A stretch of 62,283 nt of DNA, filler included, from Actinomycetota bacterium (GCA_013152275.1; 6 parts of 6 records of this genome joined end to end with filler, not necessarily neighbours in it), one strand, 5' to 3'; positions 12,338-26,380 are shown, counted from the first letter of the whole stretch. The notes: a model not told the origin generated them from the letters alone. A program made the numbers and translations.

Positions 12338-13423
12338 GTGCCGCAATACCGTATAGCAGCAATCCCCGGAGACGGAGTGGGCGCCGAGATCACCCAGGAG
12401 GCCACCCGAATTCTCAACGCTGCGGCCCAGATCCACGGATTCGACGTCGAACTCGAGACGTTCGATTGGTCATGCGATTACTACCTCCAAAACGGCGTGA
12501 TGATGCCCGAGAACGCCCTGTCGACACTCGCAGATTTCGACAGCATCTTCCTTGGTTGCATCGGGGACGCGAACAAGGTCCCCGACCACATCTCCCTGCA
12601 GCTCCTCCTCGCGATCCGTACCGGCTTCGACCAGTACGTCAATCTTCGCCCGATCAAGCTCTATCCGGGAGTACGTACTCCGATCACCACGGCCACCCCG
12701 GAGACCGTCGACATGCTGGTCATCCGTGAGAACACCGAAGGCGAGTACTCGCGGGTCGGCGGCATCTTCAAGCAGGGAACGCCCGAAAGCTTCGCGCTGC
12801 AGACGGGCGTGTTCACGTGGAAGGGCTGTGAGCGCGTCATCCGCTATGCGTTCGACGCCGCCGTCCAGCGAAGAGACACCGCCGGCTCCCCCGGACGCGT
12901 CACCAACTGCACGAAGTCGAACGCACTGAACTACTCGATGGTCTTCTGGGACGAGGTGTACGCGGCGGTGGCCCAGGACTACCCGACCGTCGAGACGGAC
13001 ATGGCGCTCGTGGACGCCCTCACGATGTGGTTCGTCAAGAACCCCGGCTGGTTCGACGTGGTCGTGGCCTCGAACCTCTTCGGAGACATCATCACCGACC
13101 TCGGCGCGATGCTCCAGGGCGGAATGGGGTTCGCCGGCGGCGGAAACGTCAATCCGGAGCGGACCTACCCGTCGATGTTCGAACCCATTCACGGTTCCGC
13201 ACCCAAGTACACGGGCAAACGTATCGTCAATCCGATCGCCTCGATCGAAGCGATCAGGATGATGCTCGAACATCTGGGCGAGAAGGAGGCGGCGGACAAC
13301 GTTCAGCAGGCGGTTGCATCGACCCTGGGAAAGGGCGAGGTCCGCACCAGGGACATGGGTGGGAACAACACAACCGATGAAGTCGGCCTGGCCGTCGAGA
13401 AGGCGATGAGGGCGACCGCATGA
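12338..13423 (+). CDS. Tartrate/D-malate-type decarboxylating dehydrogenase (IDH/IPMDH family)
   Basis: IPGDGVG, FDQYVNLRP, RENTEGEYS, TKSN, SNLFGDIITD, MFEPIHGSAP; RBS GAGGAGG before GTG. Confidence 0.88.
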   Translation: MPQYRIAAIPGDGVGAEITQEATRILNAAAQIHGFDVELETFDWSCDYYLQNGVMMPENALSTLADFDSIFLGCIGDANKVPDHISLQLLLAIRTGFDQYVNLRPIKLYPGVRTPITTATPETVDMLVIRENTEGEYSRVGGIFKQGTPESFALQTGVFTWKGCERVIRYAFDAAVQRRDTAGSPGRVTNCTKSNALNYSMVFWDEVYAAVAQDYPTVETDMALVDALTMWFVKNPGWFDVVVASNLFGDIITDLGAMLQGGMGFAGGGNVNPERTYPSMFEPIHGSAPKYTGKRIVNPIASIEAIRMMLEHLGEKEAADNVQQAVASTLGKGEVRTRDMGGNNTTDEVGLAVEKAMRATA

Positions 13424-13449
13424 CAGGACGCGGCGAGGAGGTTCCAACG

Positions 13450-14469
13450 ATGGCAAAGGTCAAAGTGGGTGTTGCGGGCTATGGCGTGATCGGGCAACGC
13501 CTGGCCGATGGTGCCGCCCGGCAGGAAGACATGGAGGTTGTCGGTGTCGCCGATGTGGCCCCCACCCTCTCGGTGCAGGCGCTCGCAGAACGCGGCATGC
13601 CCTTCGATCTCTACGCCGCCAATGCGGACGGCCGGACCGCGCTGGAGGGGGCCGGCATCCCCGTCACGGGAGACTTCGACGACCTCCTCGGACAAGTGGA
13701 CATCATGCTGGACGCCACCGGGGCAGGCATCGGCGCCAAGAACAAGGAGAAATACGTCCAACGCGGCATCAAGGCGATCTTCCAGGGGGGAGAAGCAGGC
13801 GAAGTGGCGGACGTGTTCTTCCACGGCTACGCCAACTACGAGAAGGGCCTCGGGCGTGACTACCTGAAGCTCACCTCCTGCAACACGACCGGCCTGATAC
13901 GGGCGGTCGACTGTCTCGATCGTGCCGTCGGCATCGAGAAGGTCGCCGTCACGATCATCCGACGTGTCGCCGATCCGGGTGACACCCATCGCGGTCTGGT
14001 CGACTCTCTCCTCATGGAGCCGATTCCCAATCATCAAGCGGTCGACCTGATGAACATCATGCCCCACATCGACGCGACGGGCCTGCTGGTGCACGCTCCG
14101 GTCACTCACGGCCACATCATCAGCATCGTCGCCACGCCGAAACGCTCGATCGGCAAGGACGCGGTCATCGAGGCCTTCCGGGAGCATCCCCGCATTCGAG
14201 TCGTGAAGATCGCCGACGGGTTCACCACCAACACGTCGCTCTTCAACTATGCCCGCTTTCTCGGTCATCCTCGTGGAGACATGTATGAGATCGGACTGTT
14301 CGAAGAGACCGTCGGCATGTCTGGCGATGACGTGATGTTCGCCATCAACATCCCCCAGGAGTCGGTGGTCATCCCGGAAACGATCGATGGAATCCGGGCG
14401 GCGCTCGAGCTGCAGACCGACCGCCTCGAAGCCGTCGGACTGACCAACAAATACCTGGGCATCGGCTGA
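13450..14469 (+). CDS. gap: Type II (archaeal-type) glyceraldehyde-3-phosphate dehydrogenase
   Basis: GYGVIGQRLAD, FQGGE, SCNTTGL, RRVADP, QESVVIPETIDGIRA are class II signatures (class I has SCTTNCL). Confidence 0.9.
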   Translation: MAKVKVGVAGYGVIGQRLADGAARQEDMEVVGVADVAPTLSVQALAERGMPFDLYAANADGRTALEGAGIPVTGDFDDLLGQVDIMLDATGAGIGAKNKEKYVQRGIKAIFQGGEAGEVADVFFHGYANYEKGLGRDYLKLTSCNTTGLIRAVDCLDRAVGIEKVAVTIIRRVADPGDTHRGLVDSLLMEPIPNHQAVDLMNIMPHIDATGLLVHAPVTHGHIISIVATPKRSIGKDAVIEAFREHPRIRVVKIADGFTTNTSLFNYARFLGHPRGDMYEIGLFEETVGMSGDDVMFAINIPQESVVIPETIDGIRAALELQTDRLEAVGLTNKYLGIG

Positions 14470-14488
14470 ACCAGGGATCGGACACGTC

Positions 14489-15739
14489 ATGAAGATCGCA
14501 TCGCTCGACGACTTCGACGTCCGCGGCTCTCGGGTCCTGCTCCGCGTCGACATCAACTCTCCGATCGACCAGGAGACCGGCGCGATCGCCGACGACAACC
14601 GGCTGAACAAGAGCCTTCCCACAATCGAGGACCTGGCGAGCGCGGGAGCGAAGACCGTGATCATCGCCCACCAGGGCGACACGCTGGACTACCACAACCT
14701 CGTCTCCCTCGAGGAGCATGCGGTGAAGCTCTCGGAGAAGCTGAGCCGCACGGTGTCGTTCATCGACGATGTGGCCGGTCCGGCGGCGCGGCGCGCGATC
14801 CTCGATCTGGAAGACGGGGAGATCCTCCTTCTCGACAATCTTCGCTTCCTCACCGAGGAGGTCTCCACGTTCGAGAACGCGGTCAAGCTCACACCGAAGG
14901 AGATGACCAGGACCTACCTCGTGCGGAACCTTGCGCCGCTCTTCGACCTGTACGTCAACGATGCGTTCGCGGCTGCGCACCGGAGCGCCCCGTCGATGGT
15001 CGCGTTCCAGGAACTCCTGCCCACGGCGGGAGGGCGTCTCCTCCTCGAAGAAGTCGCCGCACTGTCGAACATTGCCGAGAATCCGGAGCGGCCGTGCGTC
15101 TTCGTCCTGGGCGGATTGAAGATCTCCGATGCCTTCGGGATGATGACGAAGATCCTCGCCGAGGGAACGGCCGACACGCTGCTCACGACCGGTATCACCG
15201 GGCACATCATGCTCATGGCGGCCGGTATCGACCTGGGGCCGGCCTCGGTGCGCTTCATCCGGGATCGGTCACTCGACGCCTTCGTTCCCCAGGCCGTCGA
15301 TTACCTGGCGCGATACGGTGATCGGATACGGGTGCCGATCGACGTCGCCGTGGATGACCATGGCCGCAGGCGCGAGGTGCCCGTATCGGACCTTCCGACC
15401 GACCTGATGATCATCGACATAGGCTCCGAGACCATCGCCGAGTACGGCCGGGTCATCAACGAGGCCGCGACCGTGTTCGTCAACGGCCCGGCGGGTGTGT
15501 ACGAGTCGCAGATCGGCGCCACCGGCACACGCTCCCTCTGGGAGGCGGTGGCCGCCACATCGGGACGCTCGGTGATCGGCGGCGGCGACACCGTCGCCGG
15601 CGCACGTCGGTTCATCGATCTGAACGACATCGACTTCGTGAGCACCGGTGGTGGTGCGCTGATCCGCTACCTGAGCGGCCGGCCTCTCCCCCTCCTGAGG
15701 GCGATGGAGAAGGCGGCCGAACGGGACCTGGCACGGTGA
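14489..15739 (+). CDS. pgk: Phosphoglycerate kinase, archaeal-type
   Basis: LRVDINSP, AHQG, NLRF, NDAFAAAHRS, GGLKISD, NGPAGVYE, GGGDT, STGGGA. Confidence 0.9.
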   Translation: MKIASLDDFDVRGSRVLLRVDINSPIDQETGAIADDNRLNKSLPTIEDLASAGAKTVIIAHQGDTLDYHNLVSLEEHAVKLSEKLSRTVSFIDDVAGPAARRAILDLEDGEILLLDNLRFLTEEVSTFENAVKLTPKEMTRTYLVRNLAPLFDLYVNDAFAAAHRSAPSMVAFQELLPTAGGRLLLEEVAALSNIAENPERPCVFVLGGLKISDAFGMMTKILAEGTADTLLTTGITGHIMLMAAGIDLGPASVRFIRDRSLDAFVPQAVDYLARYGDRIRVPIDVAVDDHGRRREVPVSDLPTDLMIIDIGSETIAEYGRVINEAATVFVNGPAGVYESQIGATGTRSLWEAVAATSGRSVIGGGDTVAGARRFIDLNDIDFVSTGGGALIRYLSGRPLPLLRAMEKAAERDLAR

Positions 15740-16005
15740 GCGCCGGCGGCGCGGACCGGGCCCCTGTGATGGGTTCGGCTCGCTCCCCGTGGCTGCGCGA
15801 CGATGGCCACGGATACGCCGACAGTGCCCTGGCTACGCCCGGACGCTCTTCGGGCCGTCCGATGATGCATCCGCCGCGATGGTGATGAACACACCGGCGT
15901 GACCGACCCGGGTGCTCGATCACCCGCCGGAACGGCTCCGGTGCACGCCTGGCACAATGGGCGCTACATTGAGGCGCAAGCAGGCCAAACGAGGAGGATA
16001 CGGAC

Positions 16006-16404
16006 GTGGCTGGAACCTTTGTACCGAATGCATCGGTCGATTTCGAAACACTGGACTGGGGACAGCTCGGTTGGCTGTCCCGACCGGCATCCACCGGAGC
16101 GAAACAGCTCGTCGTCATCGATGTTCGGCTCGATCCAGGCGGCTGCCACAATTTCCACAAGCACCCCGATCAGGAAGAGGTCCTCTTTGTGGTCGAAGGG
16201 GCGGTCGAACAGTGGATCGGCGACGAGAAGCACATCATGGCGGCGGGCGACTCCTGCTTCGTCCCGAAGGACACGGTCCACGCCTCGTTCAACGACTCCG
16301 ATGACGATGCGAAGTTGCTGGCCATCCTCGGTCCTTGCGTCGGTGAGGCCGGATACGAACTCGTCGACGTCTCCGGGGAAGAACCTTGGGCTTCGCTTCG
16401 CTGA
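16006..16404 (+). CDS. Cupin domain protein
   Basis: HNFHKHPDQEE and GDSCFVPKDTVH motifs. Confidence 0.9.
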   Translation: MAGTFVPNASVDFETLDWGQLGWLSRPASTGAKQLVVIDVRLDPGGCHNFHKHPDQEEVLFVVEGAVEQWIGDEKHIMAAGDSCFVPKDTVHASFNDSDDDAKLLAILGPCVGEAGYELVDVSGEEPWASLR

Positions 16405-16532
16405 TCGCCGACGTCGGCCCGACCCGTACGAGATCCGCTGCGCGCGCCCGCCTGACGNNNNNNNNNNNNNNNNNNNNNNNNNNNNNNNNNNNNNNNNNNN
16501 NNNNNNNNNNNNNNNNNNNNNNNNNNNNNNNN

Positions 16533-16703
16533 AGCGACCGATTCGTCGACGACGTCGCCGCTCACGGGTCACACGAAAAGCTCCGGGCGGCGATCGCACG
16601 CGTGCACGCGCCCGGAGCCGACCATGTGGCCGCCATACGCCCGGCTCCGCAGGGATCTCCTGTCGATCGGACCGGTCTCGAAGCGATGGGGCCCACCTCT
16701 TGA
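16533..16703 (+). CDS. C-terminal fragment of an LLM-class F420-dependent oxidoreductase (next to gap)
   Basis: SDRFVDDVAAHG...GADHV resembles LLM C-termini; remainder missing or in the N gap. Confidence 0.45.
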   Translation, partial: SDRFVDDVAAHGSHEKLRAAIARVHAPGADHVAAIRPAPQGSPVDRTGLEAMGPTS

Positions 16704-16791
16704 CCGGTATCTCTGGGCCCGACTATCGTAAATACTCGATAATCGATGATTTGCCCGGGTGTGTCCGATCGACCTGGCCGTGGAGGTGACG

Positions 16792-17160
16792 GTGGAACTC
16801 AAAGCCGTGACGAGAGAAGAAGCGCGGGTGTTCAATCTGCCCGGCAGGGATTGGCTGCACTACATCGGCCCGGAGATCGGCGATGCCCGGAATCTGACCG
16901 TCGGCTACTCGGTGTTCCCTCCAGATTCGGCCCCCGAGGGGCATGTCCACCCGACCGAGGAAGAAGTCATCTACATCGTCTCGGGCAAGGGTGAGCTGGT
17001 GACACCCGAGGGCACGGCCATCCTCGAACCCGGCACCTGCGTGTACATTCCGCCGGGTCTGCACCACCAGACCGTTTCCCGCGGCCCCGGACCCCTGGAG
17101 ATGGTCACCGCCTTCTCTCCACCTATTGTTCCCGGCTCATACGAGAAAGAGAACGAATGA
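16792..17160 (+). CDS. Cupin domain protein
   Basis: GHVHPTEEE and PGTCVYIPPGLHH; RBS GGAGG. Confidence 0.9.
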   Translation: MELKAVTREEARVFNLPGRDWLHYIGPEIGDARNLTVGYSVFPPDSAPEGHVHPTEEEVIYIVSGKGELVTPEGTAILEPGTCVYIPPGLHHQTVSRGPGPLEMVTAFSPPIVPGSYEKENE

Positions 17161-17191
17161 ACGTGAGCGCACCGCCCGAACCGAGATCCGA

Positions 17192-18058
17192 ATGAAGACA
17201 GCCGAGCCGACCATCGCCGAGATCGCCGACATCGCCCGCAGGGCTCGTATCCAGATTCTCAAAGCGGTCGCCCATGCAAAAGGTGGCCATGTGGGCGGCC
17301 CCTATTCGGCAATCGACATGCTGGCCACCCTCTACTTTCGCGTTCTGAATGTTCGGCCCGATGAACCGGACTGGCCCGACCGAGACCGGTTCGTGCTGTC
17401 CAAGGGCCACAGCTCCATCGCCTTGTACACCATCCTGGCGATGCGGGGCTTCTTCGACATGGAGGAGCTGGCGACGTTCGACTCGATCGACTCCAGGCTG
17501 CAAGGCCATCCGGACATGACGATCACCCCGGGTGTCGACATGTCGTCCGGCTCGCTCGGCCTCGGTTTCGCCGGGGCACTCGGCATCGCCCTCGGGGCCC
17601 GAACATTGGGCAAGGACTTCACCACCTATGTGATGCTCGGCGACGGTGAGTGCAACGAGGGGATCGTGTGGGAAGGGGCCCATGTGGCCAACCGCTATCA
17701 CCTCGACAACATCGTGGCGATCATCGACCAGAACAACCTCCAGCAGTTCGGCTGGCGCGGCGACACGGAGACCGAACGCCTCACCCCGTACGTCGGAGAC
17801 GAGCTCGCCGGCCGCTGGAAGGCGTTCGGATGGCACGTGCTGGAGGTGGACGGTCACGACATTCAAGCGTTCCTGGACACCGTGGAGAAGGCCCGGGCCG
17901 TCTCCGGAAGCCCCGTCGCGATCGTGGCCCACACCATCAAAGGCAAAGGGGTCTCCTACATGGAGGACAACTACACATGGCACAGCAGGGTGCCGACCGA
18001 GGAGGAGTTCGCCATCGCGATGCAGGAACTCGGCGACACGAAAGCCGGTGAACGATGA
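17192..18058 (+). CDS. Transketolase N-terminal subunit
   Basis: GHVGG, RDRFVLSKGH, LQGHP, GSLG, TPP motif GDGE..EG...N. Confidence 0.94.
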   Translation: MKTAEPTIAEIADIARRARIQILKAVAHAKGGHVGGPYSAIDMLATLYFRVLNVRPDEPDWPDRDRFVLSKGHSSIALYTILAMRGFFDMEELATFDSIDSRLQGHPDMTITPGVDMSSGSLGLGFAGALGIALGARTLGKDFTTYVMLGDGECNEGIVWEGAHVANRYHLDNIVAIIDQNNLQQFGWRGDTETERLTPYVGDELAGRWKAFGWHVLEVDGHDIQAFLDTVEKARAVSGSPVAIVAHTIKGKGVSYMEDNYTWHSRVPTEEEFAIAMQELGDTKAGER

Positions 18059-19008
18059 CCAGTCTCGCACCGGGGAAAGCGCTCAGAGTGGCCTTCGGTG
18101 AGACGATCGCCGAACTCGCAAGGACCGATCCCCGACTTGTCGTCCTCGACGGCGATACCGGGAGCTCCACCCGGACGGACTTCTTCGAGAACGAGCATCC
18201 GGAACGGTTCTTCCAGATGGGGATCACCGAACAGAACATGCTCGGCATGGCAGCCGGCATGGCGACGCTCGGGTTGATCCCGATCGTCAGCACCTTTGCC
18301 TGCTTCATCGTCTCTCGGGCACACGACTCGATCCGGGTGCTGATCGCCCAGCCGAAGCTGAACGTCAAACTGATGGGCGGATACGCCGGTCTGCTTGCCG
18401 GGATGACCGGCAAGACACACCTCATCTTCGATGACATCTCCATCATGCGAGCAATGGCGAACATGACGGTGATCGCCCCCGCCGACGAGATCGAGACCCG
18501 CAAGGCGCTGCCCGCGATCATCGACCATCCCGGTCCGGTGTACCTGCGGCTGACCCGCCCCAACTCGCCGATCCTCTTCGATGACGACTACGAGTTCGAG
18601 ATCGGCAAGGCGGTCACCCTTCGAGAAGGGTCCGACATCACCGTCTTCTCGACGGGTTTGCAGAGCGTCCGCGCGTACGAGGCCGCGCAAACACTGGCAA
18701 CCGAGGGCATCGACGTGCACCTCGTCCACGTGCCGACGATCAAGCCACTCGACGTCGACGCAATCGTGAGCGCCGCAGCGAAGACGGACCTGGTGATGAC
18801 GTCGGAGGAGCACACCATCGTGGGCGGTCTTGGCGGGGCGATCGCCGAGACTCTGGCGGAGCACCATCCCGTAACGGTCAAGCGACACGGTCTGCAGGAC
18901 GTGTTCGGAGAGTCCGGGCCCGACGCGGCTCTCCTCGAGAAGTACGGCATCTCGCCGTCGAAGACGGCCGAGGCGGTCCGTGAGACGGTCCGCTCTCACA
19001 AGGCGTGA
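18055..19008 (+). CDS. Transketolase C-terminal subunit
   Basis: GITEQNM, GPVYLRL, TIKPLD, EEHTIVGGLG; ATGA overlap with previous gene. Confidence 0.94.
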   Translation: MTSLAPGKALRVAFGETIAELARTDPRLVVLDGDTGSSTRTDFFENEHPERFFQMGITEQNMLGMAAGMATLGLIPIVSTFACFIVSRAHDSIRVLIAQPKLNVKLMGGYAGLLAGMTGKTHLIFDDISIMRAMANMTVIAPADEIETRKALPAIIDHPGPVYLRLTRPNSPILFDDDYEFEIGKAVTLREGSDITVFSTGLQSVRAYEAAQTLATEGIDVHLVHVPTIKPLDVDAIVSAAAKTDLVMTSEEHTIVGGLGGAIAETLAEHHPVTVKRHGLQDVFGESGPDAALLEKYGISPSKTAEAVRETVRSHKA

Positions 19009-19061
19009 CCGGAGGGACGGTCGGTAGAGGCATGGAACTGGAGAAGGTGGAGGGAACGTAA

Positions 19062-19847
19062 GTGAGCCAACTGGATATCTTCAGGCTCGACGGCAAGGTT
19101 GCCATCATTCCCGGTGGCAGCGGTGGCATCGGGTCCACGATTGCAGAGGGACTCGCAGCGGCCGGCGCCAGAGTTGCGATCGTGGGCCGATCGGCGGAGC
19201 GTGCCCAGGTCGTGGCCGAGAGAGTGCTCGATACCGGCGGCCAGGCCCTGGCGATCGCGGCCGATGTCACACAGAAGGAAGAGGCGGACCGTGCCGTGGC
19301 CGAGGCCACCGGCCGGTGGGGCCGCCTCGACATCATCGTCAACGCGGTCGGAGGCGGGGCCGGCAACGTCCTGTTCGATGCGCAGGACTACCCGATTCCC
19401 GAATGGGACTGGATCTTCGAGTTGAACGTTCGCAGCACCGTGCTCCCCACACAGGCGGCGGTCAAGGCAATGATCGAAGCCGGGCACGGGGGCAAAGTCC
19501 TGAACATCTCATCGGTCCGGGGCCAACTCGGCATCAATGCCGGCTACTCGGCGTACGTGGCCGCAAAAGGGGCAATCGATTCACTGACGCGCCAGTGGGC
19601 CACGGAGTGGGCGCGGCACGGAATCTGCGTAAACGCGATCGCCCCGACATTCATCGACACACCCCAGGTTGCGATGTTGTTGGAAGATCCCGACTTCAAG
19701 GCCGGCGTCGTCAACCGCATCCCGCTCAACCGGGTCGGTGAGACCGCGGACCTGGTCGGCGCGAGCCTGTTGTTCTGCTCGGAAGCCTCGTCGTTCATCA
19801 CCGGACAGATCCTCACCATCGATGGCGGACTGACCGCCACGCAGTAA
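19062..19847 (+). CDS. SDR oxidoreductase (gluconate 5-dehydrogenase/KduD-like)
   Basis: GGSGGIG, NISS, YVAAK, EWA..GI.VNAIAP. Confidence 0.9.
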   Translation: MSQLDIFRLDGKVAIIPGGSGGIGSTIAEGLAAAGARVAIVGRSAERAQVVAERVLDTGGQALAIAADVTQKEEADRAVAEATGRWGRLDIIVNAVGGGAGNVLFDAQDYPIPEWDWIFELNVRSTVLPTQAAVKAMIEAGHGGKVLNISSVRGQLGINAGYSAYVAAKGAIDSLTRQWATEWARHGICVNAIAPTFIDTPQVAMLLEDPDFKAGVVNRIPLNRVGETADLVGASLLFCSEASSFITGQILTIDGGLTATQ

Positions 19848-19874
19848 CCACCAATCAAAGGAAGACCCAGAGAA

Positions 19875-20729
19875 ATGCAGAACGTCACACCCAACGTATT
19901 CACGGAGACGAAGCTCCGCGGATGCAACCCGAGCTATGTGACGACATCGGACGGCGTGGTCGTCATCGATACGCCCCAGCTCCCCACCAAGGCGGTAGCC
20001 ATGCGCGAAGAGGCCGAATCTCACGGCCCGATCCGCTACCTGATCAACACCGAGCATCACGTCGACCACATCTTCGGCAACTACTACTTCAAGGGCGCCG
20101 GCACCGTCGTGCACCACCAAGGCGTCTACGACAATTTCATGGTCGTCAGCCCCGAACTGGACCCCTTCGCGTACGCTGCGGAAGCGATCCCGACCGACGA
20201 CCCGGACGGCGAGGCCATCTTCCCCGATCGGGACGAGTACTACTCGAACCCCAACAAGGGCCAGATCGTCTTCTCCGAGAATCTGACACTGCGAGTGGGA
20301 GGCCACACCTTCGAGCTGCTTCACACTCCGGGCCACACCCCCGGCCAGGTGGCGGTGCACGTCCCGGAAGAACGAGTCGTGTTCACCGGCGATACCGTCT
20401 TCTCCCAATGTCAGACGTGGCTGATGACCTCGAACGTGGACCAGTGGCTCGACGCCCTCGACACGGTCCGGGCACTCGATGTCGATCACATCGTTCCGGG
20501 TCATGGGCCCGTCACGACCAAGTCGTATCTCGACGTGCAGCGGTCCGTGCTGCTCGAGTGGAAGACGGCCGTGGCGATCGGCATCGCCAAAGGCTGGTCG
20601 AAGGAGGAGACGATCGAGCGGGTCAACTTCTCGGATCGGTGCCCGGTCGACATCGGCCAGGAGTACATGATGGACTTCATCCAGAACCTCAACGCAGGAT
20701 CCCTCTACGACAAACTCACCACGGTCTGA
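19875..20729 (+). CDS. MBL-fold metallo-hydrolase (cyclase-like)
   Basis: TEHHVDH, PGHTPG, FTGD, PGHG. Confidence 0.9.
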   Translation: MQNVTPNVFTETKLRGCNPSYVTTSDGVVVIDTPQLPTKAVAMREEAESHGPIRYLINTEHHVDHIFGNYYFKGAGTVVHHQGVYDNFMVVSPELDPFAYAAEAIPTDDPDGEAIFPDRDEYYSNPNKGQIVFSENLTLRVGGHTFELLHTPGHTPGQVAVHVPEERVVFTGDTVFSQCQTWLMTSNVDQWLDALDTVRALDVDHIVPGHGPVTTKSYLDVQRSVLLEWKTAVAIGIAKGWSKEETIERVNFSDRCPVDIGQEYMMDFIQNLNAGSLYDKLTTV

Positions 20730-20763
20730 AGTCGGAGCGACACGGCCGTTCGAGGAGCGTGCA

Positions 20764-21990
20764 ATGAACGCACCGTCCCACTCTGCCGTCTCGTCTGTCC
20801 ACGTGGCCTGGCGAGCGGTCGTCCCGGCCTTTGCGGCAGTGACGGTGAGCGTCCTTCCAGGTTTCCTGACCGCCGGTCTGGCCGTCCAGATCGGCAACGG
20901 CATCGGGCTCGGCCTTACCGGGTTGGGCGTGGTGATCGGGGTCTTCTTCGCCGCCTCAACGCTGGGATCCCCACTGATGGGGGCGCTGGTCCAACGGGTG
21001 GGCTGGGCTCGCGGCCTGCGTCTGTCGAGCTTCATGGCGGCCGTGTCGCTGGCCGGAATAGCCTTCGCCGCGCCAACACCCGTCGCGTTCGGCGCATGGC
21101 TCGTCCTCGGTGGATTGGCGATTTCGCTGGCGCAACCTGCTGCAAACCTCACCGTTGCCCGCTGCGTCGGCAGCCGGCGCCGGGGCTTCCTGTTCGGCGC
21201 GAAGCATGCGTCCGCTCCCGCAGCGATCTTCCTCGGCGGCTTGGCAGTGCCGGCAGTGGCACTGACGGTCGGATGGGAATGGGCGTTCTGGGGAGGGTCG
21301 GCTCTCGCCCTGTTGACCGCGCTTGCGGTCCCCCTCAGACCCGCCGACCACGAAGTCGACTCCCCGAACCGCCCTGTCGAGCAGGTCGGGCGCCCGAGCA
21401 CGCCTCTGGGATTGCTGATTGCTCTCGCCGGTGCCGCGATGCTGGGCATCGGAGGAATCAACGCTCTCGCCTCGTTCACCGTCACCTACGCCGTGCATGC
21501 AGGCTTCGGTGAGAGCACCGCCGGACTCTTGCTGGCCGGCGGCAGCCTGGCCGGCATCACTACACGTCTGGTCGCCGGATGGCTGATCGACCGGACCGAC
21601 CGCGCCGACCTCACCGCCGTTGCATCGATGTTGACCGTGGGTGCCCTGGGCGTGGCCGGCATCGCCCTCGGGACGCACGCCGGGCTGATCCTCGGCGGCG
21701 TGCTGGCGTTCGGTGCCGGATGGGGATGGTCGGGGCTTTTCACGTTCGCGGTCGTCAAAGACAACCCCGAGGCACCCGCCACGGCCACCGGCATCACGCA
21801 GACGGGCGTCTTCCTGGGAGCGGCGATCGGCCCTCCCGTCTTCGGCCTCGTGGCCGACACGGTCTCGTTCACGGCCGCCTGGTGGATGACCGGAGCGGCA
21901 CTGGTCGGAGCAGCCGCCATCATCCTCTTCGTGCGCAGCCACCGCCACACACACCTATGGTCGGCGTCGACATGGCGGGCCGCAACATGA
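20764..21990 (+). CDS. MFS transporter
   Basis: About 12 hydrophobic segments, G.L..R.G motifs. Confidence 0.88.
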   Translation: MNAPSHSAVSSVHVAWRAVVPAFAAVTVSVLPGFLTAGLAVQIGNGIGLGLTGLGVVIGVFFAASTLGSPLMGALVQRVGWARGLRLSSFMAAVSLAGIAFAAPTPVAFGAWLVLGGLAISLAQPAANLTVARCVGSRRRGFLFGAKHASAPAAIFLGGLAVPAVALTVGWEWAFWGGSALALLTALAVPLRPADHEVDSPNRPVEQVGRPSTPLGLLIALAGAAMLGIGGINALASFTVTYAVHAGFGESTAGLLLAGGSLAGITTRLVAGWLIDRTDRADLTAVASMLTVGALGVAGIALGTHAGLILGGVLAFGAGWGWSGLFTFAVVKDNPEAPATATGITQTGVFLGAAIGPPVFGLVADTVSFTAAWWMTGAALVGAAAIILFVRSHRHTHLWSASTWRAAT

Positions 21991-22152
21991 ACGCGGAGCA
22001 GACATCTCCGATGCTTCGAGAACAACGGCTCACCGGGACCCATGGAGAGCCGCAGAGAACTCCCACCCTTTCGTTCCACGGACGGCCGGCCACGCAACGC
22101 CTGTCGATCCATCCGGTGACCCACCGGATCCACAGCCCAACGGGTTCCCATC

Positions 22153-23052
22153 ATGAGTGACTATCACCTGCACCTGCATCCCCATTTCCCAACGCCCGGT
22201 TCACCACCAATGGGCGTCTATCCCCCCGGTTACATCGACCAATACGTGGAGACGGCGCTGTCCCGAGGAGTCACCGAGCTCGGCTTCACCGAGCATCTCT
22301 ACCGGTGCGTCGAATCCGCTCCGATCCTGGGCACCTGGTGGGAGCACGACCCCGACCCCCGCCTGTCGGCCGAGATGGAACGCTACGTCACACTGGAGCG
22401 CAACCTGTCACTCGAGGCGTATGTCGACGTCGTACTCGACGCCAAGCAACGCGGGCTCCCCGTCAAGCTCGGCCTCGAGGTCGACTTCGAGCCCGGAACC
22501 GTCGACTCCGTGTTGGATCTGCTCGCGGGCTATCCCTTCGACTTTCTCATCGGTTCCGTTCATTGGATAGGTGCCTGGTCCATCGACCGCCCGAGCGCCG
22601 CCCCCGAGTTCGCCAGGCGCGGCGTACGGCGCGCCTATGAGCAGTACTTCGAACTGGAAACCGAGCTCGCCGCCTCGGAAATGGTCGACGTTCTGGCCCA
22701 TGCCGACCTCGTCAAGAAGCTCGGCATCCACCCGAAGGGGTCCTTGGACGACCTGTACACGCCACTGGTGGCCGCCGCGGCCGCAAGCGGTGTCGCCGTC
22801 GAAGTATCAAGCGCCGGCCTGCGAAAACCGGTTGGCGAGATCTACCCCGCCCCGCGTCTCCTTCGGAGCTTTCGCGCGGCCGGCGTTCCCATCACGCTCG
22901 CCAGCGACGCCCACATCCCCGACGAGGCAGGCTGGGGGCACATCCCGGTCGTACGCGCCGCGAGAGCCGCCGGATACACCCATCATCTGCGTTTCTCCGA
23001 CCGCAAGAGATACGAGATGCCCTTGCCACATCCAACGGGAGACGACGCATGA
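22153..23052 (+). CDS. PHP-family phosphatase (histidinol-phosphatase HisJ-like)
   Basis: DYHLH, FTEH, GLEVD, GSVH, AHADL, SDAH. Confidence 0.88.
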   Translation: MSDYHLHLHPHFPTPGSPPMGVYPPGYIDQYVETALSRGVTELGFTEHLYRCVESAPILGTWWEHDPDPRLSAEMERYVTLERNLSLEAYVDVVLDAKQRGLPVKLGLEVDFEPGTVDSVLDLLAGYPFDFLIGSVHWIGAWSIDRPSAAPEFARRGVRRAYEQYFELETELAASEMVDVLAHADLVKKLGIHPKGSLDDLYTPLVAAAAASGVAVEVSSAGLRKPVGEIYPAPRLLRSFRAAGVPITLASDAHIPDEAGWGHIPVVRAARAAGYTHHLRFSDRKRYEMPLPHPTGDDA

Positions 23053-23876
23053 GAGTGTCGTTCAAGACCCGACCGCAAAACACGGAATGGCGACCGATGA
23101 TCGACTTCTGGCTCGAGGCCGATCGCATCGATCTGTACTCCGCCGGTTGGACCTTCGACCACTTCTACCCGATCTTCTCCGATCCCACCGGACCCTGCTT
23201 CGAAGGATGGACGATGCTGTCCTATCTGGCAGGGGTGACGGACCGGCTGCGCCTCGGTGTGCTCGTCAGCGGGAACACGCACCGGCATCCCGCGCTGCTC
23301 GCGAACATGGCGGCGACGCTCGACGTCGCATCACAAGGTCGTCTGGAAATCGGTCTCGGCGCCGGATGGAGCGAGGAGGAGCATGCGGCCTACGGGATAC
23401 CCCTGCCTCCCTGGCCGGAGCGATTCGACCGGCTCGAAGAGTCCTGCGAGATCATCGACAGCCTCCTGACACGCGAAACCACGACTTTGATCGGAACGCA
23501 CTACCGGCTCACGGACGCCAGGTGCGAACCGAAGCCGGTACAGAAGCCACTGGTGATCGGGGGCAAGGGTGAGAAACGGACCCTTCGTATCGCCGCACGT
23601 TGGGCCGACCAGTGGAACTTCCCGTTCGGAGAGCCGGCGGAGCTCCGTCACAAGATCCAGGTGCTGCACGCCCACTGCGCCGACATCGGGCGGGATCCGT
23701 CAGAGATCGAGATCTCGGTGAAGGCGGAGGCCGGTGAAGAGCCGGCCGCCTTCGCCGAACTCGCCGCCGCCTATCGGGAGGCCGGAGCCCAGCACATCAT
23801 CGTCCACTTCCCGCCACCTCACGATCCGGCGACGCTGGGAGCGTACGCCGAGAGCCTCGCGCAGGTGGTCCGATAG
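23049..23876 (+). CDS. LLM-class F420-dependent oxidoreductase
   Basis: FDHFYP, RHPALLANMAATLD, GRLEIGLGAGW, GGKGEKRTL. Confidence 0.92.
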   Translation: MRVSFKTRPQNTEWRPMIDFWLEADRIDLYSAGWTFDHFYPIFSDPTGPCFEGWTMLSYLAGVTDRLRLGVLVSGNTHRHPALLANMAATLDVASQGRLEIGLGAGWSEEEHAAYGIPLPPWPERFDRLEESCEIIDSLLTRETTTLIGTHYRLTDARCEPKPVQKPLVIGGKGEKRTLRIAARWADQWNFPFGEPAELRHKIQVLHAHCADIGRDPSEIEISVKAEAGEEPAAFAELAAAYREAGAQHIIVHFPPPHDPATLGAYAESLAQVVR

Positions 23877-23949: not shown

Positions 23950-26088
23950 TCAGGCGCGGCCGGCGGCCACCTCGTCGGCCCGGTTGCGACCGGCGAGAAG
24001 GATCAGGTCCTCGTGAAGCTCGAACCAGACGCCGTGGTAGCTGTCCACTCTGGGCGAGGCGATGTAGCGATGATCGCCGCCGCGAACGAGACCCGCCGCC
24101 CGCTCCAGCCGCTCGAGGTAGAAGCCGAGTCGAGGGAGCCCGTCGCTGAGCGACTGGAGCAACGCGGCGGCATCTTGGTGCAGGAAACCGAACTCGGCCA
24201 GCACCGATGCGTCGTAGGCCGCGTCGGAGTGATCGTTCAACACTTGCCGGCCGTCGACCTCACGCATCTGCCAGGCGGTCACGATGCCCTTTGTCCGGTG
24301 GTCGAGCGATAGGAATGCATCGAGTGCCTCGATGGCATTCTCCACGCCCCAGGACTCCTGATCGGCAATGATCAGCTCTCTGCCGAGCGTCTTGCCTTCC
24401 GCTGTCAGCTGGAACATGCCGCCGGAGGACTCGACGAGTCCGTCGGCGGTCATCCGCTCGAGAACCTGATTCGCCCCTTCCTCTGTCGTGAAGAACGCGG
24501 ACGCGATGCCCTCAGCTGTCACAAAGCCCTTGATGACGAGCGTCCGAACGACGGCATCGACGCTCGGCCCGCCCTCCTCCGAGGTTTCGCCGCCCTCCTC
24601 CGAGGTTTCGCCGCCCTCTTCCGAGGCTGGGATCTCGATCCCGAGATCCTGAGCCCAGGACAGGAGCTTCGTCGCCTCGGGAACGACCGTCGCGCTGCTC
24701 GAGACCGCGCCGGCGAATACCTCCCCGCTGCCGCCGTCGATCGTCAGCATGTCCCCGGCGGTGAACACGCGATCGCCGATGGAGATCGTCCCCTCCCCCA
24801 CCTTCACCGCGGAGGCACCGACGACCGCCGGGATCCCCCATCCTCGTGCGACCACTGCCGCGTGGCTGGCGAGGCCACCGGTCGAAGTCAGGATTCCGAC
24901 CGCCCTGGCCATGCCGTGAACGTCATCGGGTGACGTTTCGCGACGAACGAGGATCACGCTCCGACCCGCATCGGCCGCGGCGACGGCGTCCTCGGGTGTC
25001 GTGACGATCTCGCCCGATGCCACCCCTGGAGATGCCGCGAGGCCGGTCGTGACGACCGGAACGTCCGCGGGCCGCTCGCCAACCGTGGTAGGGGGATTAT
25101 CCAGGTGGCGAGCGACCCGGCGGACAGCTTCTGCGCGAGAGAGGGGAAAGTCGTCGTCCTCTGCCATGTCGACCGCGATCCGCAGCGCGGCCTGTGGACT
25201 CCGCTTGCCGATCCGGACCTGCAGCAGCCAGAGTCGACCTTGCTCGATCGTGAACTCGATATCACACAGATCGACGAAGTGGTGTTCGAGCGTGTGGGCG
25301 TATCGCCGCAGGTCCTCGGCAACCGCGGGCATCCGCTCATCGAGCACGGCGATCGGCTCTGTCTGGCTCGTCCCGGCGACGACATCCTCGCCCTGTGCAT
25401 CGAACAGGATGTCGCCATAGAGGCGAGGCTCCCCGGTCGCCGGGTTCCTGGTGAACAGGACACCGGTGGCCGAATCGGAGCCCCGGTTGCCGAACACCAT
25501 GGCCTGTACGGTCACCCCCGTCCCAAGGTCGTCGGCGATGCCCTCGCGGGCACGGTAGCTTCTGGCCCGGCCACAGTTCCAGGAACGGAAGACCGCCTCG
25601 ATCGCACCGCGCAGTTGCTCCCACGGATCCTCGGGAACGACCTCCACACCGACGATCTGCCGATACATCGTCGAGAAGCGATCCCGACAGACGTCCACAA
25701 ACGCACTGTCACCCGATACGGCGGCGAGCCCCCGAGCCGTCATGTCGTTGAGACCCAGGTTCAGGATCGTGTCCATCATCCCAGGCATCGAGACCGGCGC
25801 TCCGGAGCGGACGCTCACGAGCAAGGGATCTGTCGGATCCCCGAACCGGCGCCCCACGGCCGTCTCCACGCGGCGCATGTGCTCGCGGATCTCCTCGTCG
25901 AGTCCCTCCGGCCAGCCCCCTGCCAGGTACGCCCGGCACGCCTCTGTCGAGATCGTGAAGCTGGGAGGTACCGGAAGACCAAGCTCGTTGGCCATGACGG
26001 CGATGTTGGCCGCCTTCCCCCCGATGAGGGCCTTGACCTCGGCATGTGGCAGATCGTGCGGGTGGTCGAAAGCAAAGACGTATGCCAC
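23950..26088 (-). CDS. Truncated pyruvate phosphate dikinase-like protein (ATP-grasp + phospho-His domain) fused to wHTH/Rv1126c-like domain
   Basis: GGKAAN, LLVSVRSGA..SMPGMMDTILNLG, VQAMVFGN, QGEDVVAG, DIEFTIE, GGLASHAAVVARG; no pyruvate-binding barrel; tail with DSYHGVWFELHE; GTG start after GGAGAG. Confidence 0.88.
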   Translation of the reverse strand: MAYVFAFDHPHDLPHAEVKALIGGKAANIAVMANELGLPVPPSFTISTEACRAYLAGGWPEGLDEEIREHMRRVETAVGRRFGDPTDPLLVSVRSGAPVSMPGMMDTILNLGLNDMTARGLAAVSGDSAFVDVCRDRFSTMYRQIVGVEVVPEDPWEQLRGAIEAVFRSWNCGRARSYRAREGIADDLGTGVTVQAMVFGNRGSDSATGVLFTRNPATGEPRLYGDILFDAQGEDVVAGTSQTEPIAVLDERMPAVAEDLRRYAHTLEHHFVDLCDIEFTIEQGRLWLLQVRIGKRSPQAALRIAVDMAEDDDFPLSRAEAVRRVARHLDNPPTTVGERPADVPVVTTGLAASPGVASGEIVTTPEDAVAAADAGRSVILVRRETSPDDVHGMARAVGILTSTGGLASHAAVVARGWGIPAVVGASAVKVGEGTISIGDRVFTAGDMLTIDGGSGEVFAGAVSSSATVVPEATKLLSWAQDLGIEIPASEEGGETSEEGGETSEEGGPSVDAVVRTLVIKGFVTAEGIASAFFTTEEGANQVLERMTADGLVESSGGMFQLTAEGKTLGRELIIADQESWGVENAIEALDAFLSLDHRTKGIVTAWQMREVDGRQVLNDHSDAAYDASVLAEFGFLHQDAAALLQSLSDGLPRLGFYLERLERAAGLVRGGDHRYIASPRVDSYHGVWFELHEDLILLAGRNRADEVAAGRA

Positions 26089-26232
26089 GTTCTCTCCGAT
26101 CCTCGATAATCGATTACCCGAGCCTACGCGTCTTCCCATCCCAGCGTCAACCTGGAATCGAGATGAGAACCAATGAAGCCGCCATTCGAGCCAACTCTCC
26201 TCGGGACAATGGACACTACCGGCGGGGCCACG

Positions 26233-26380
26233 TTCTTCCTTCCCCTAGCAGGGGAAGTGGCCTCGGGGCTTTGGCCGAGGTCGATGGGGTAGAGCCTGTT
26301 CCTGGCAGGTCCAGCGGTCTGGGCGAGGAACGACCCCACTTCTTGCTTCCCCTAGCAGGGGAAGTGGCCTCGGGGCTTTG
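26233..26380. repeat. REP-like repeat family CTTCCCC-N-GGGGAAG, two units
   Basis: CTTCCCCTAGCAGGGGAAGTGGCCTCGGGGCTTTG at 26239 and 26346; contig ends within it. Confidence 0.85.

Follow-up and report, generated by a model that had tools for sequence, protein, structure and literature searches.

Why should a bacterium that has canonical gap, pgk and tpi genes also carry a class II GAPDH-like gene beside the gene for an archaeal-type PGK-like kinase? The question is raised by a gene cluster in Actinomycetota bacterium GCA_013152275.1, whose 3.07-Mb genome comes in 100 contigs and whose close relatives by gene content carry the label Acidimicrobiia. The window, meaning the whole stretch of 62,283 nucleotides that was analysed, consists of joined contigs, and the cluster (12338-23876) lies entirely inside one of them, C22. 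Profile searches recovered all the genes named in a first-pass annotation of this DNA, co-oriented on the plus strand and, as it had claimed, without tpi. From gene families, residue changes, co-occurrence and an operator, each of which can be observed directly, we infer activities, direction and substrate; the reading we favour, with a little more than even confidence, is that the GAPDH and the kinase are a repurposed couple that would turn D-malate semialdehyde into D-malate and ATP and would be fed here by a split transketolase. That D-malate is the product of the kinase family seems to us likely, and the couple is probably a real, conserved and undescribed variant of the GAPDH/PGK pair. 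Literature searches, whose coverage took in few subscription journals and no supplements, found no description of such a module.

An accessory couple with an altered substrate site

Canonical genes lie elsewhere in this genome, class I gap on contig C69 and pgk-tpi on contig C98. The GAPDH-like gene (13450..14469, plus strand) and the kinase gene (14489..15739, plus strand) are not the housekeeping set, being neither sole copies nor linked to tpi. The kinase (PF00162) has Pyrococcus horikoshii 2cun as its nearest PDB entry, both in sequence (E 1.8e-79) and in fold (TM 0.88), and its predicted structure (pLDDT 95.2) presents the two-domain PGK fold with the ATP-site motifs. In pig PGK, Arg65, Arg122 and Arg170 bind the 3-phosphate while Asp23 and Asn25 bind the 2-oxygen (PMC7729029). 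The position of Arg65 is occupied by Asp64 in the window kinase and in 81 of 81 aligned members, a set biased in that one search pattern included this residue, and likewise in all 7 members selected by score. Each of 13 canonical bacterial PGKs, including one encoded in genome G023, has Arg there, and the 117 full-length representatives divide into 102 with Arg, 2 with Lys, 4 with Asp, 4 with Ser and 5 with another residue or a gap. The basic patch of three Arg is incomplete in the window kinase, with Asp64 at one position and the other two Arg retained; in all, Asp21, Asn23, Arg38, His61, Arg119 and Arg165 are kept. Such a site would fit a 2-hydroxy acid whose distal group is less charged than phosphate.

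The Asp64 family makes up an 81-row clade (support 100) in a FastTree phylogeny of 127 rows; that tree, which gave long-branch warnings among the outgroups, omits loci whose sequences are short, 5 partial representatives and, past the first 40, most of the representatives that carry Arg. Kinases of a sister group (L206, L207; P0004, P0010, P0023, P0121) have Ser where Arg65 would be; they too lie beside a GAPDH of this family and a LarA gene, and may act on a related substrate.

The GAPDH-like protein exceeds the cut-offs of both class II models (PRK04207, 385 against 185; TIGR01546, 296 against 233). Catalytic Cys144, the pair Arg171-Arg172 and the catalytic His are present in 63 of 63 aligned members, and we take the Cys motif, the Arg pair and the catalytic His to have the roles generally ascribed to them in GAPDH. 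Asp35, present in 62 of the 63, falls at a position that is Lys, Ser or Thr in archaeal GAPDH structures, and His215, His220, Gln196 and Pro302 are specific to the subfamily and found in every member. Archaeal class II GAPDH and PGK are mainly gluconeogenic and their reactions are reversible, so the couple might work in the reductive direction, in which D-malate or tartrate would be activated and turned into an aldehyde acceptor for the transketolase. Asp35 suggests NAD+, however, and the partners described below are irreversible decarboxylating drains in catabolic contexts, which makes the reductive direction very improbable in our view.

Functional evidence for bacterial class II GAPDHs was described as nonexistent in a 2019 paper, which also found no glyceraldehyde 3-phosphate activity for the type II GAPDH of Pseudoclostridium thermosuccinogenes; the primer-encoded ends of that protein resemble the ends of the window family, a hint only of kinship (PMC6543838). 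These observations bear on whether the window proteins could be ordinary triose-phosphate isoenzymes, supplying glyceraldehyde 3-phosphate to the transketolase or for gluconeogenesis. Both do exceed the GAPDH-II and PGK cut-offs and retain most substrate-site residues, and a transketolase requires an aldose acceptor. We nevertheless consider isoenzymes quite improbable given the invariant Arg-to-Asp charge reversal, the canonical set elsewhere in the genome, the inactivity of a probable homologue on glyceraldehyde 3-phosphate (PMC6543838) and the many loci in which the pair occurs with a racemase and malic enzyme and without a transketolase.

The kinase is patchily distributed: 7 of 60 relatives have it and, among 250 genomes from the class to which the host belongs, 3. 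The first-pass annotation had proposed horizontal acquisition, which finds no support as a recent event: GC content (0.62-0.66) and GC at third codon positions (GC3, 0.81-0.86) of the cluster match the genome (0.638) and a single clade of 33 rows (support 100) unites the Acidimicrobiia-rich copies, so that acquisition appears old and the distribution patchy. Recent transfer from archaea, also considered, is unsupported by GC, GC3 or the tree, whose representatives carry no taxonomy. A second class II GAPDH, 35-37% identical to that of the cluster, is encoded on C93 (L006:9320-10498, minus strand), with a P-type ATPase gene on one side and a Glu/Leu/Phe/Val dehydrogenase gene on the other; its subfamily His residues are missing and the contig has no PGK.

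Genomic partners that point to D-malate

If the favoured reading is correct, D-malate semialdehyde (3-hydroxy-4-oxobutanoate), a carboxylate analogue of glyceraldehyde 3-phosphate, would be oxidized by the GAPDH-like enzyme with NAD+ and inorganic phosphate to D-malyl 1-phosphate, from which the kinase would transfer phosphate to ADP to give D-malate and ATP, and the dehydrogenase encoded immediately upstream would convert D-malate to pyruvate and CO2. That dehydrogenase (12338..13423, plus strand; best PDB match 3flk, E 7.6e-101) probably belongs to the decarboxylating tartrate/D-malate family. On the TTC model (TIGR02089) its score, 464.3, falls just short of the cut-off of 470.4, which 3 of 5 scanned homologues exceed; on an IPMDH model it scores 393.9 against 393. 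A separate paralogue of 44% identity lies among ilv/leu genes on C24.

A GTDB genome scan gave at least 522 relatives of the kinase, from which 80 loci were taken as the kinase locus set. A class II GAPDH gene stands beside the kinase in 69 of them, and 48 have at least one gene whose product would drain D-malate: a LarA-family protein in 29, a tartrate/D-malate dehydrogenase in 17 and malic enzyme in 15. LarA and the dehydrogenase never co-occur, with a Fisher p of 1.6e-4 that kinship inflates. A malate racemase model is the best match of every one of the 29 LarA proteins, 17 of which exceed its cut-off, and malate racemases have been characterized (PMC7583248, PMC11770544). With the queries used, no LarA or UxaA/SuyAB partners were found in the host genome. 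These neighbours also bear on a sulfoglycolysis variant in which the pair would convert 3-sulfolactaldehyde to sulfolactate and ATP. The substrate is isosteric, UxaA/SuyAB-like genes are divergent to the pair in 2 of the 80 loci and a distant SftI-like gene occurs in 1; yet the LarA genes of those two loci pass the cut-off for LarAH5 malate racemases, the window locus showed no sulfoglycolysis family and a decarboxylating dehydrogenase requires a second carboxylate, so that we give this variant very little credence.

Two further contexts lead to the same aldehyde. The first is inositol degradation, as iolD or iolE occurs in 16 of the 80 loci, 11 of which also have a split transketolase, and 15 of the 16 corresponding genomes have no IolC above cut-off (1 does). 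On stereochemical grounds, removal of two carbons from 5-dehydro-2-deoxy-D-gluconate, the IolB product, should leave (R) malate semialdehyde, which would be isosteric with D-glyceraldehyde 3-phosphate. As a control we used an even sample of 250 Clostridia genomes, with the query genome left out of the counts. Fifteen have iolD, and none of the 7 IolC-positive genomes among these has the core kinase; the kinase was found in 4 genomes, all iolD-positive and IolC-negative and each with a GAPDH-kinase-transketolase run (kinase-iolD association, p 8.7e-6). The second context is amine degradation: a GABA-aminotransferase-like or trimethylamine-methyltransferase gene is present in 8 of the 80 loci, which would fit the conversion of demethylated carnitine to malate semialdehyde, and it has been demonstrated that carnitine can be degraded aerobically to pyruvate by way of malic semialdehyde and D-malate (PMC11353897).

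On these grounds we propose, tentatively and at somewhat less than an even chance, that a phosphorylating D-malate-semialdehyde dehydrogenase and a D-malate kinase, both descended from an archaeal-type GAPDH/PGK couple, form an undescribed natural module for substrate-level phosphorylation, a lower pathway shared by several phyla. It would end three routes: transketolase-dependent, IolC-free inositol fermentation in anaerobes, degradation of carnitine-type amines and, here, a ring-opening regulon of about 25 genes. The cluster itself is unlikely to be the host's inositol route, as a canonical iol cluster with iolC above cut-off, iolD, iolE, an iolB-like gene and MMSDH is found on C94 (L111), C25 carries iolG and another iolE-like gene, and the window cluster contains none of iolG, iolE, iolD and iolB.

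Other neighbourhoods of the kinase are more varied. It adjoins trimethylamine-methyltransferase genes in L063, L081 and L041, with corrinoid protein genes in the first two, and these neighbourhoods could possibly belong to an anaerobic carnitine route. In L060 and L097 (Acidimicrobiales) the pair is divergent from genes for UxaA/SuyAB-like proteins, a LarAH5 racemase and an MBL protein. A gene of the Asp/Glu/hydantoin racemase family accompanies the pair in 7 of the 80 loci (L046, L047, L049, L050, L051, L088, L096), the dehydrogenase-GAPDH-kinase block directly follows purB in the same direction in L036, L064, L070, L073, L087, L093, L151 and L179, and in L032-L035 the kinase, here without GAPDH, follows PIG-L deacetylase and CapC-like capsule genes.

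The transketolase, its operator and a second arm

The transketolase is encoded as an N-terminal subunit (17192..18058, plus strand; PF00456), which keeps the thiamine diphosphate motif, and a C-terminal subunit (18055..19008, plus strand) with an altered substrate loop. Aligned to 6yaj, it has Tyr, Thr and Lys in place of His, Asp and Ala; the replaced His and Asp correspond to H461 and to what we take to be D469 in E. coli numbering. The altered loop is present in 59 of 64 metagenomic homologues, the other 5 giving no pattern match, and the inositol-linked transketolase likewise lacks the loop Asp, with Asn instead. The window enzyme represents a separate subtype, sharing only 34-44% identity with the transketolases encoded in the Bacillota, Spirochaetota and Thermotogota loci. 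In the favoured reading it would pass two carbons from an unphosphorylated C6 5-keto acid to an aldose phosphate, releasing D-malate semialdehyde. Transketolases are known in special pathways, AptAB for apiose and the sulfo-TK SqwGH; no family of the apiose or sulfoquinovose pathways was present among 14 scanned proteins, a scan that did not include direct comparison with AptAB or SqwGH sequences.

The 5-keto acid would be produced by a cupin and an SDR, with the MBL-fold protein. The SDR (19062..19847, plus strand; best PDB matches 1vl8 and 5u9p) has gluconate 5-dehydrogenases as its nearest models, with every score below cut-off (PRK08213, 223 against 279). This resemblance suggests another substrate, in which the SDR would make 5-keto-gluconate or a related 5-keto-aldonate, the transketolase would cleave it to tartrate semialdehyde, the pair would yield tartrate and ATP and the dehydrogenase would act on tartrate. 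An engineered E. coli transketolase, R358I/H461S/R520Q, which lost the same His as the window enzyme, cleaves 5-keto-gluconate better and gives tartaric semialdehyde (PMC12016104), and malate racemases epimerize tartrate too (PMC11770544). We judge the tartrate reading unlikely, since the SDR falls below all gluconate 5-dehydrogenase cut-offs, the aldehyde that the inositol and amine contexts yield is the deoxy one (of malate) and 15 of the 80 loci have malic enzyme nearby. Among the substrates suggested earlier, then, D-malate is favoured and tartrate comes second, with little support for sulfo-acids, threonate or erythronate.

Which genes travel with the transketolase was assessed in 26 metagenomic loci of at least 8 kb, the counts being limited by contig ends. 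The SDR is present in 24, the second cupin in 23, the MBL protein in 21, a C_GCAxxG protein in 20 and the dehydrogenase in 10; the first cupin is rare, with one match at 45% identity or more among 65 metagenomic transketolase loci. Across the 250 genomes from the class of the host, the distributions are nested: the 3 with the kinase fall within the 5 with the transketolase, and these within the 6 with the dehydrogenase. The dehydrogenase therefore appears to be the constant partner, and the pair that would yield ATP optional.

The cluster is tied to other genes by a palindrome, TCGATAATCGA, which occurs exactly 3 times in the 3.07-Mb genome where 0.2-0.8 copies are expected. The three copies precede the second cupin gene (putative operator at 16736..16747, plus strand), a PPDK-like gene (26103..26114, plus strand, 15 bases before the likely start) and an ABC transporter gene. 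It stands before the second cupin gene in 32 of 34 related metagenomic loci, and in none of those examined for GAPDH (0 of 7), the kinase (0 of 10), the N-terminal transketolase subunit (0 of 47) or the SDR (0 of 46); some relatives have it in front of MMSDH, E1 alpha, UPF0261 or GAPDH. Only exact sites are informative, a search of the window with 2 mismatches being at chance (7 against 4.6). The first site lies just downstream of a weak promoter-like sequence (16700-16729), which by itself, like the promoter and terminator scan as a whole, is at chance level.

The third copy leads to a second arm on C59 (L198:600-19850). In a relative from the same genus (G001) the two arms are contiguous, and the PPDK-like gene is the last of the convergent arm. 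Encoded in the second arm are a Liv-type ABC transporter, UPF0261, a phosphoenolpyruvate (PEP)-hydrolase-like protein, a PEP-utiliser, a GntR-FCD regulator, a three-subunit Mo-hydroxylase, a cyclase-family hydrolase, a Zn-dependent alcohol dehydrogenase (Zn-ADH), a low-molecular-weight phosphatase and a 292-residue protein without a Pfam match (PEPCK/HPr-kinase-like in the ESM Atlas); E1 alpha/beta and MMSDH genes lie beside the arm on the opposite strand. The shared operator and the linked GntR-FCD gene would define a GntR/FadR-type regulon of about 25 genes in two arms. The families of the second arm suggest an upper pathway that probably handles, and opens, a hydroxylated aromatic or heterocyclic ring compound rather than simply a sugar acid. 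We considered vitamin B6, pyrimidines, hydroxyhydroquinone, flavins and cyclitols as upper substrates; to our knowledge none fits all the genes. UPF0261 proteins and heterodimeric dikinases with a PEP-utiliser subunit phosphorylate aromatics (PMC12624787), and the ring compound would here be phosphorylated, either hydroxylated or reduced as well, and then opened by hydrolases. The first-pass annotation had described an interconversion of acid and aldehyde by the pair, linked to the transketolase, within a candidate sugar-acid pathway; the interconversion survives as our best reading, and the stand-alone sugar-acid pathway is not supported, as the operator ties the cluster to an arm resembling ring-compound catabolism.

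Several contexts converge on the lower three steps, whereas the upper steps are read from gene families, and we are less certain of the step assigned to the transketolase, given that the enzyme has lost the loop Asp and that an MMSDH gene is co-regulated. We take the loop Asp to recognize an alpha-hydroxy aldehyde, and the window enzyme has Thr there. In L036, L064, L087 and G480 the same operator precedes an MMSDH-type gene, so that the transketolase product could be malonate semialdehyde. In that case the pair would still make D-malate, its semialdehyde coming from elsewhere, while the transketolase would release an aldehyde with no alpha-hydroxyl for MMSDH. The MMSDH and E1 genes beside the second arm agree with this, as does the lack of an operator before the dehydrogenase-GAPDH-PGK block in the host genome and in G001. 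We rate such a separate feed as fairly unlikely, since all 5 transketolase-positive genomes have the window-type dehydrogenase, all 3 kinase-positive ones have the transketolase and the inositol-linked enzyme has also lost the Asp.

Other observations weigh against the D-malate reading more generally. At such low identity of the transketolase the logic of the inositol loci is not directly transferable, and GAPDH and kinase are both present in only 7 of the 26 long transketolase loci, the kinase is absent from 2 of the 5 transketolase-positive genomes and the operator precedes the dehydrogenase in only 3 of 12 metagenomic loci. Of the 80 kinase loci, 11 have no GAPDH and 32 no drain gene in the DNA available. 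Genome G068 carries both IolC and the kinase, the exclusion of IolC is not significant in the Clostridia control (p 0.077), where 4 of 8 IolC-negative genomes are without the core kinase, and all p-values are overstated because kin are not independent. The GAPDH retains the Arg-Arg pair, and the negative result for the P. thermosuccinogenes protein, which is linked to the family through its termini only, was obtained with crude extract (PMC6543838).

Remaining genes and known systems

The interruption of the cluster by 75 N, reported by the first-pass annotation, is present at 16458..16532, and a misjoin there is ruled out: G001 has, without N, the dehydrogenase, GAPDH, PGK, C_GCAxxG, first cupin, LLM, second cupin, both transketolase subunits, SDR, MBL, MFS, PHP, LLM and PPDK-like genes in this order, which is also kept across the gap in other relatives. 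The gap therefore joins related DNA, and the window retains two fragments that had been overlooked. One is a broken C_GCAxxG_C_C redox-protein gene (about 15736..15890, plus strand), intact in relatives (PF09719) and matched by tblastn to residues 1-55 of the G001 protein in two frames (E 2.7e-6). The other, directly after the gap, is the 3' end of a second F420-type LLM oxidoreductase gene (16533..16703, plus strand; TIGR03620-like, the G001 gene scoring 216.9 against 219.8). The gap hides about 0.8 kb of this LLM gene, the length present in G001, or the gene is truncated.

The first cupin gene (16006..16404, plus strand; PF07883) appears accessory. The product of the second (16759..17160, plus strand; PF07883) is possibly an isomerase, and the MBL-fold hydrolase (19875..20729, plus strand; PF00753), from clusters labelled 'cyclase', a possible ring-opening hydrolase or lactonase. 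PDB searches with the MBL protein, the second-arm cyclase and the PEP-utiliser gave no close functional match, and the Atlas gave merely generic labels for the MBL protein and the 292-residue protein. An MFS transporter (20764..21990; PF07690), a PHP (HisJ-like) phosphatase (22153..23052; PRK07328, 228 against 202) and an F420-dependent LLM oxidoreductase (23049..23876; TIGR03560, 263 against 231) complete the plus-strand series. The PPDK-like dikinase subunit gene (23950..26088, minus strand; PRK05878, 501 against 456), convergent on the cluster, lies outside the span first described. A direct repeat of about 40 bases occurs in two copies upstream of it, at 26140-26380 of the window, near the contig end.

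New in this work are the operator uniting the transketolase unit with the second arm, the Clostridia control and the nested profile. If our reading is true, a group of bacterial class II GAPDHs would gain a function, some genes annotated pgk would not be glycolytic, ATP would be formed at a step new to metabolism, and inositol fermentation in gut and sediment anaerobes would have a further, new branch. Nature would also possess a malate kinase and a keto-acid transketolase, which engineers have so far built by mutation, and the operator would mark a large orphan catabolic regulon in uncultured Acidimicrobiia.

Compared with known systems, the window pair shares with archaeal class II GAPDH and PGK (1cf2, 2czc, 1b7g; 2cun) the fold, the catalytic Cys and His, the Arg-Arg pair, the ATP-site motifs and the gap-pgk adjacency. 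It differs in the Asp that replaces Arg/Lys in the PGK patch, in Asp35 and the His, Gln and Pro changes of the GAPDH, and in being bacterial, accessory and linked to D-malate-removing genes. Related kinase loci have iolG, iolE, iolD and iolB in common with the canonical myo-inositol pathway IolG-E-D-B-C-J-A, but in the 15 of 16 genomes without IolC the transketolase and the pair stand in its place. The synthetic malyl-phosphate pathway reportedly uses aspartate-pathway enzymes and the other carboxyl of L-malate. Its malate kinase and malate semialdehyde dehydrogenase perform the same chemistry, engineered and in the reductive direction (PMC5481828). The aerobic L-carnitine pathway of Acinetobacter baumannii shares the sequence malic semialdehyde, D-malate, pyruvate plus CO2 and a beta-decarboxylating dehydrogenase, but it uses a non-phosphorylating aldehyde dehydrogenase without ATP gain and is fed by a Rieske monooxygenase and not by a transketolase (PMC11353897). 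AptAB, SqwGH and the engineered cleavage of 5-keto-gluconate (PMC12016104) likewise combine a split or altered transketolase with a non-standard ketol donor. Finally, the second arm has UPF0261, the PEP-utiliser and PPDK-like pair and phosphatases in common with acetovanillone catabolism (MarK, HpeHI/AcvAB); in place of a carboxylase, which was not seen in the second arm, it has the Mo-hydroxylase, the cyclase-family hydrolase and the Zn-ADH (PMC12624787).

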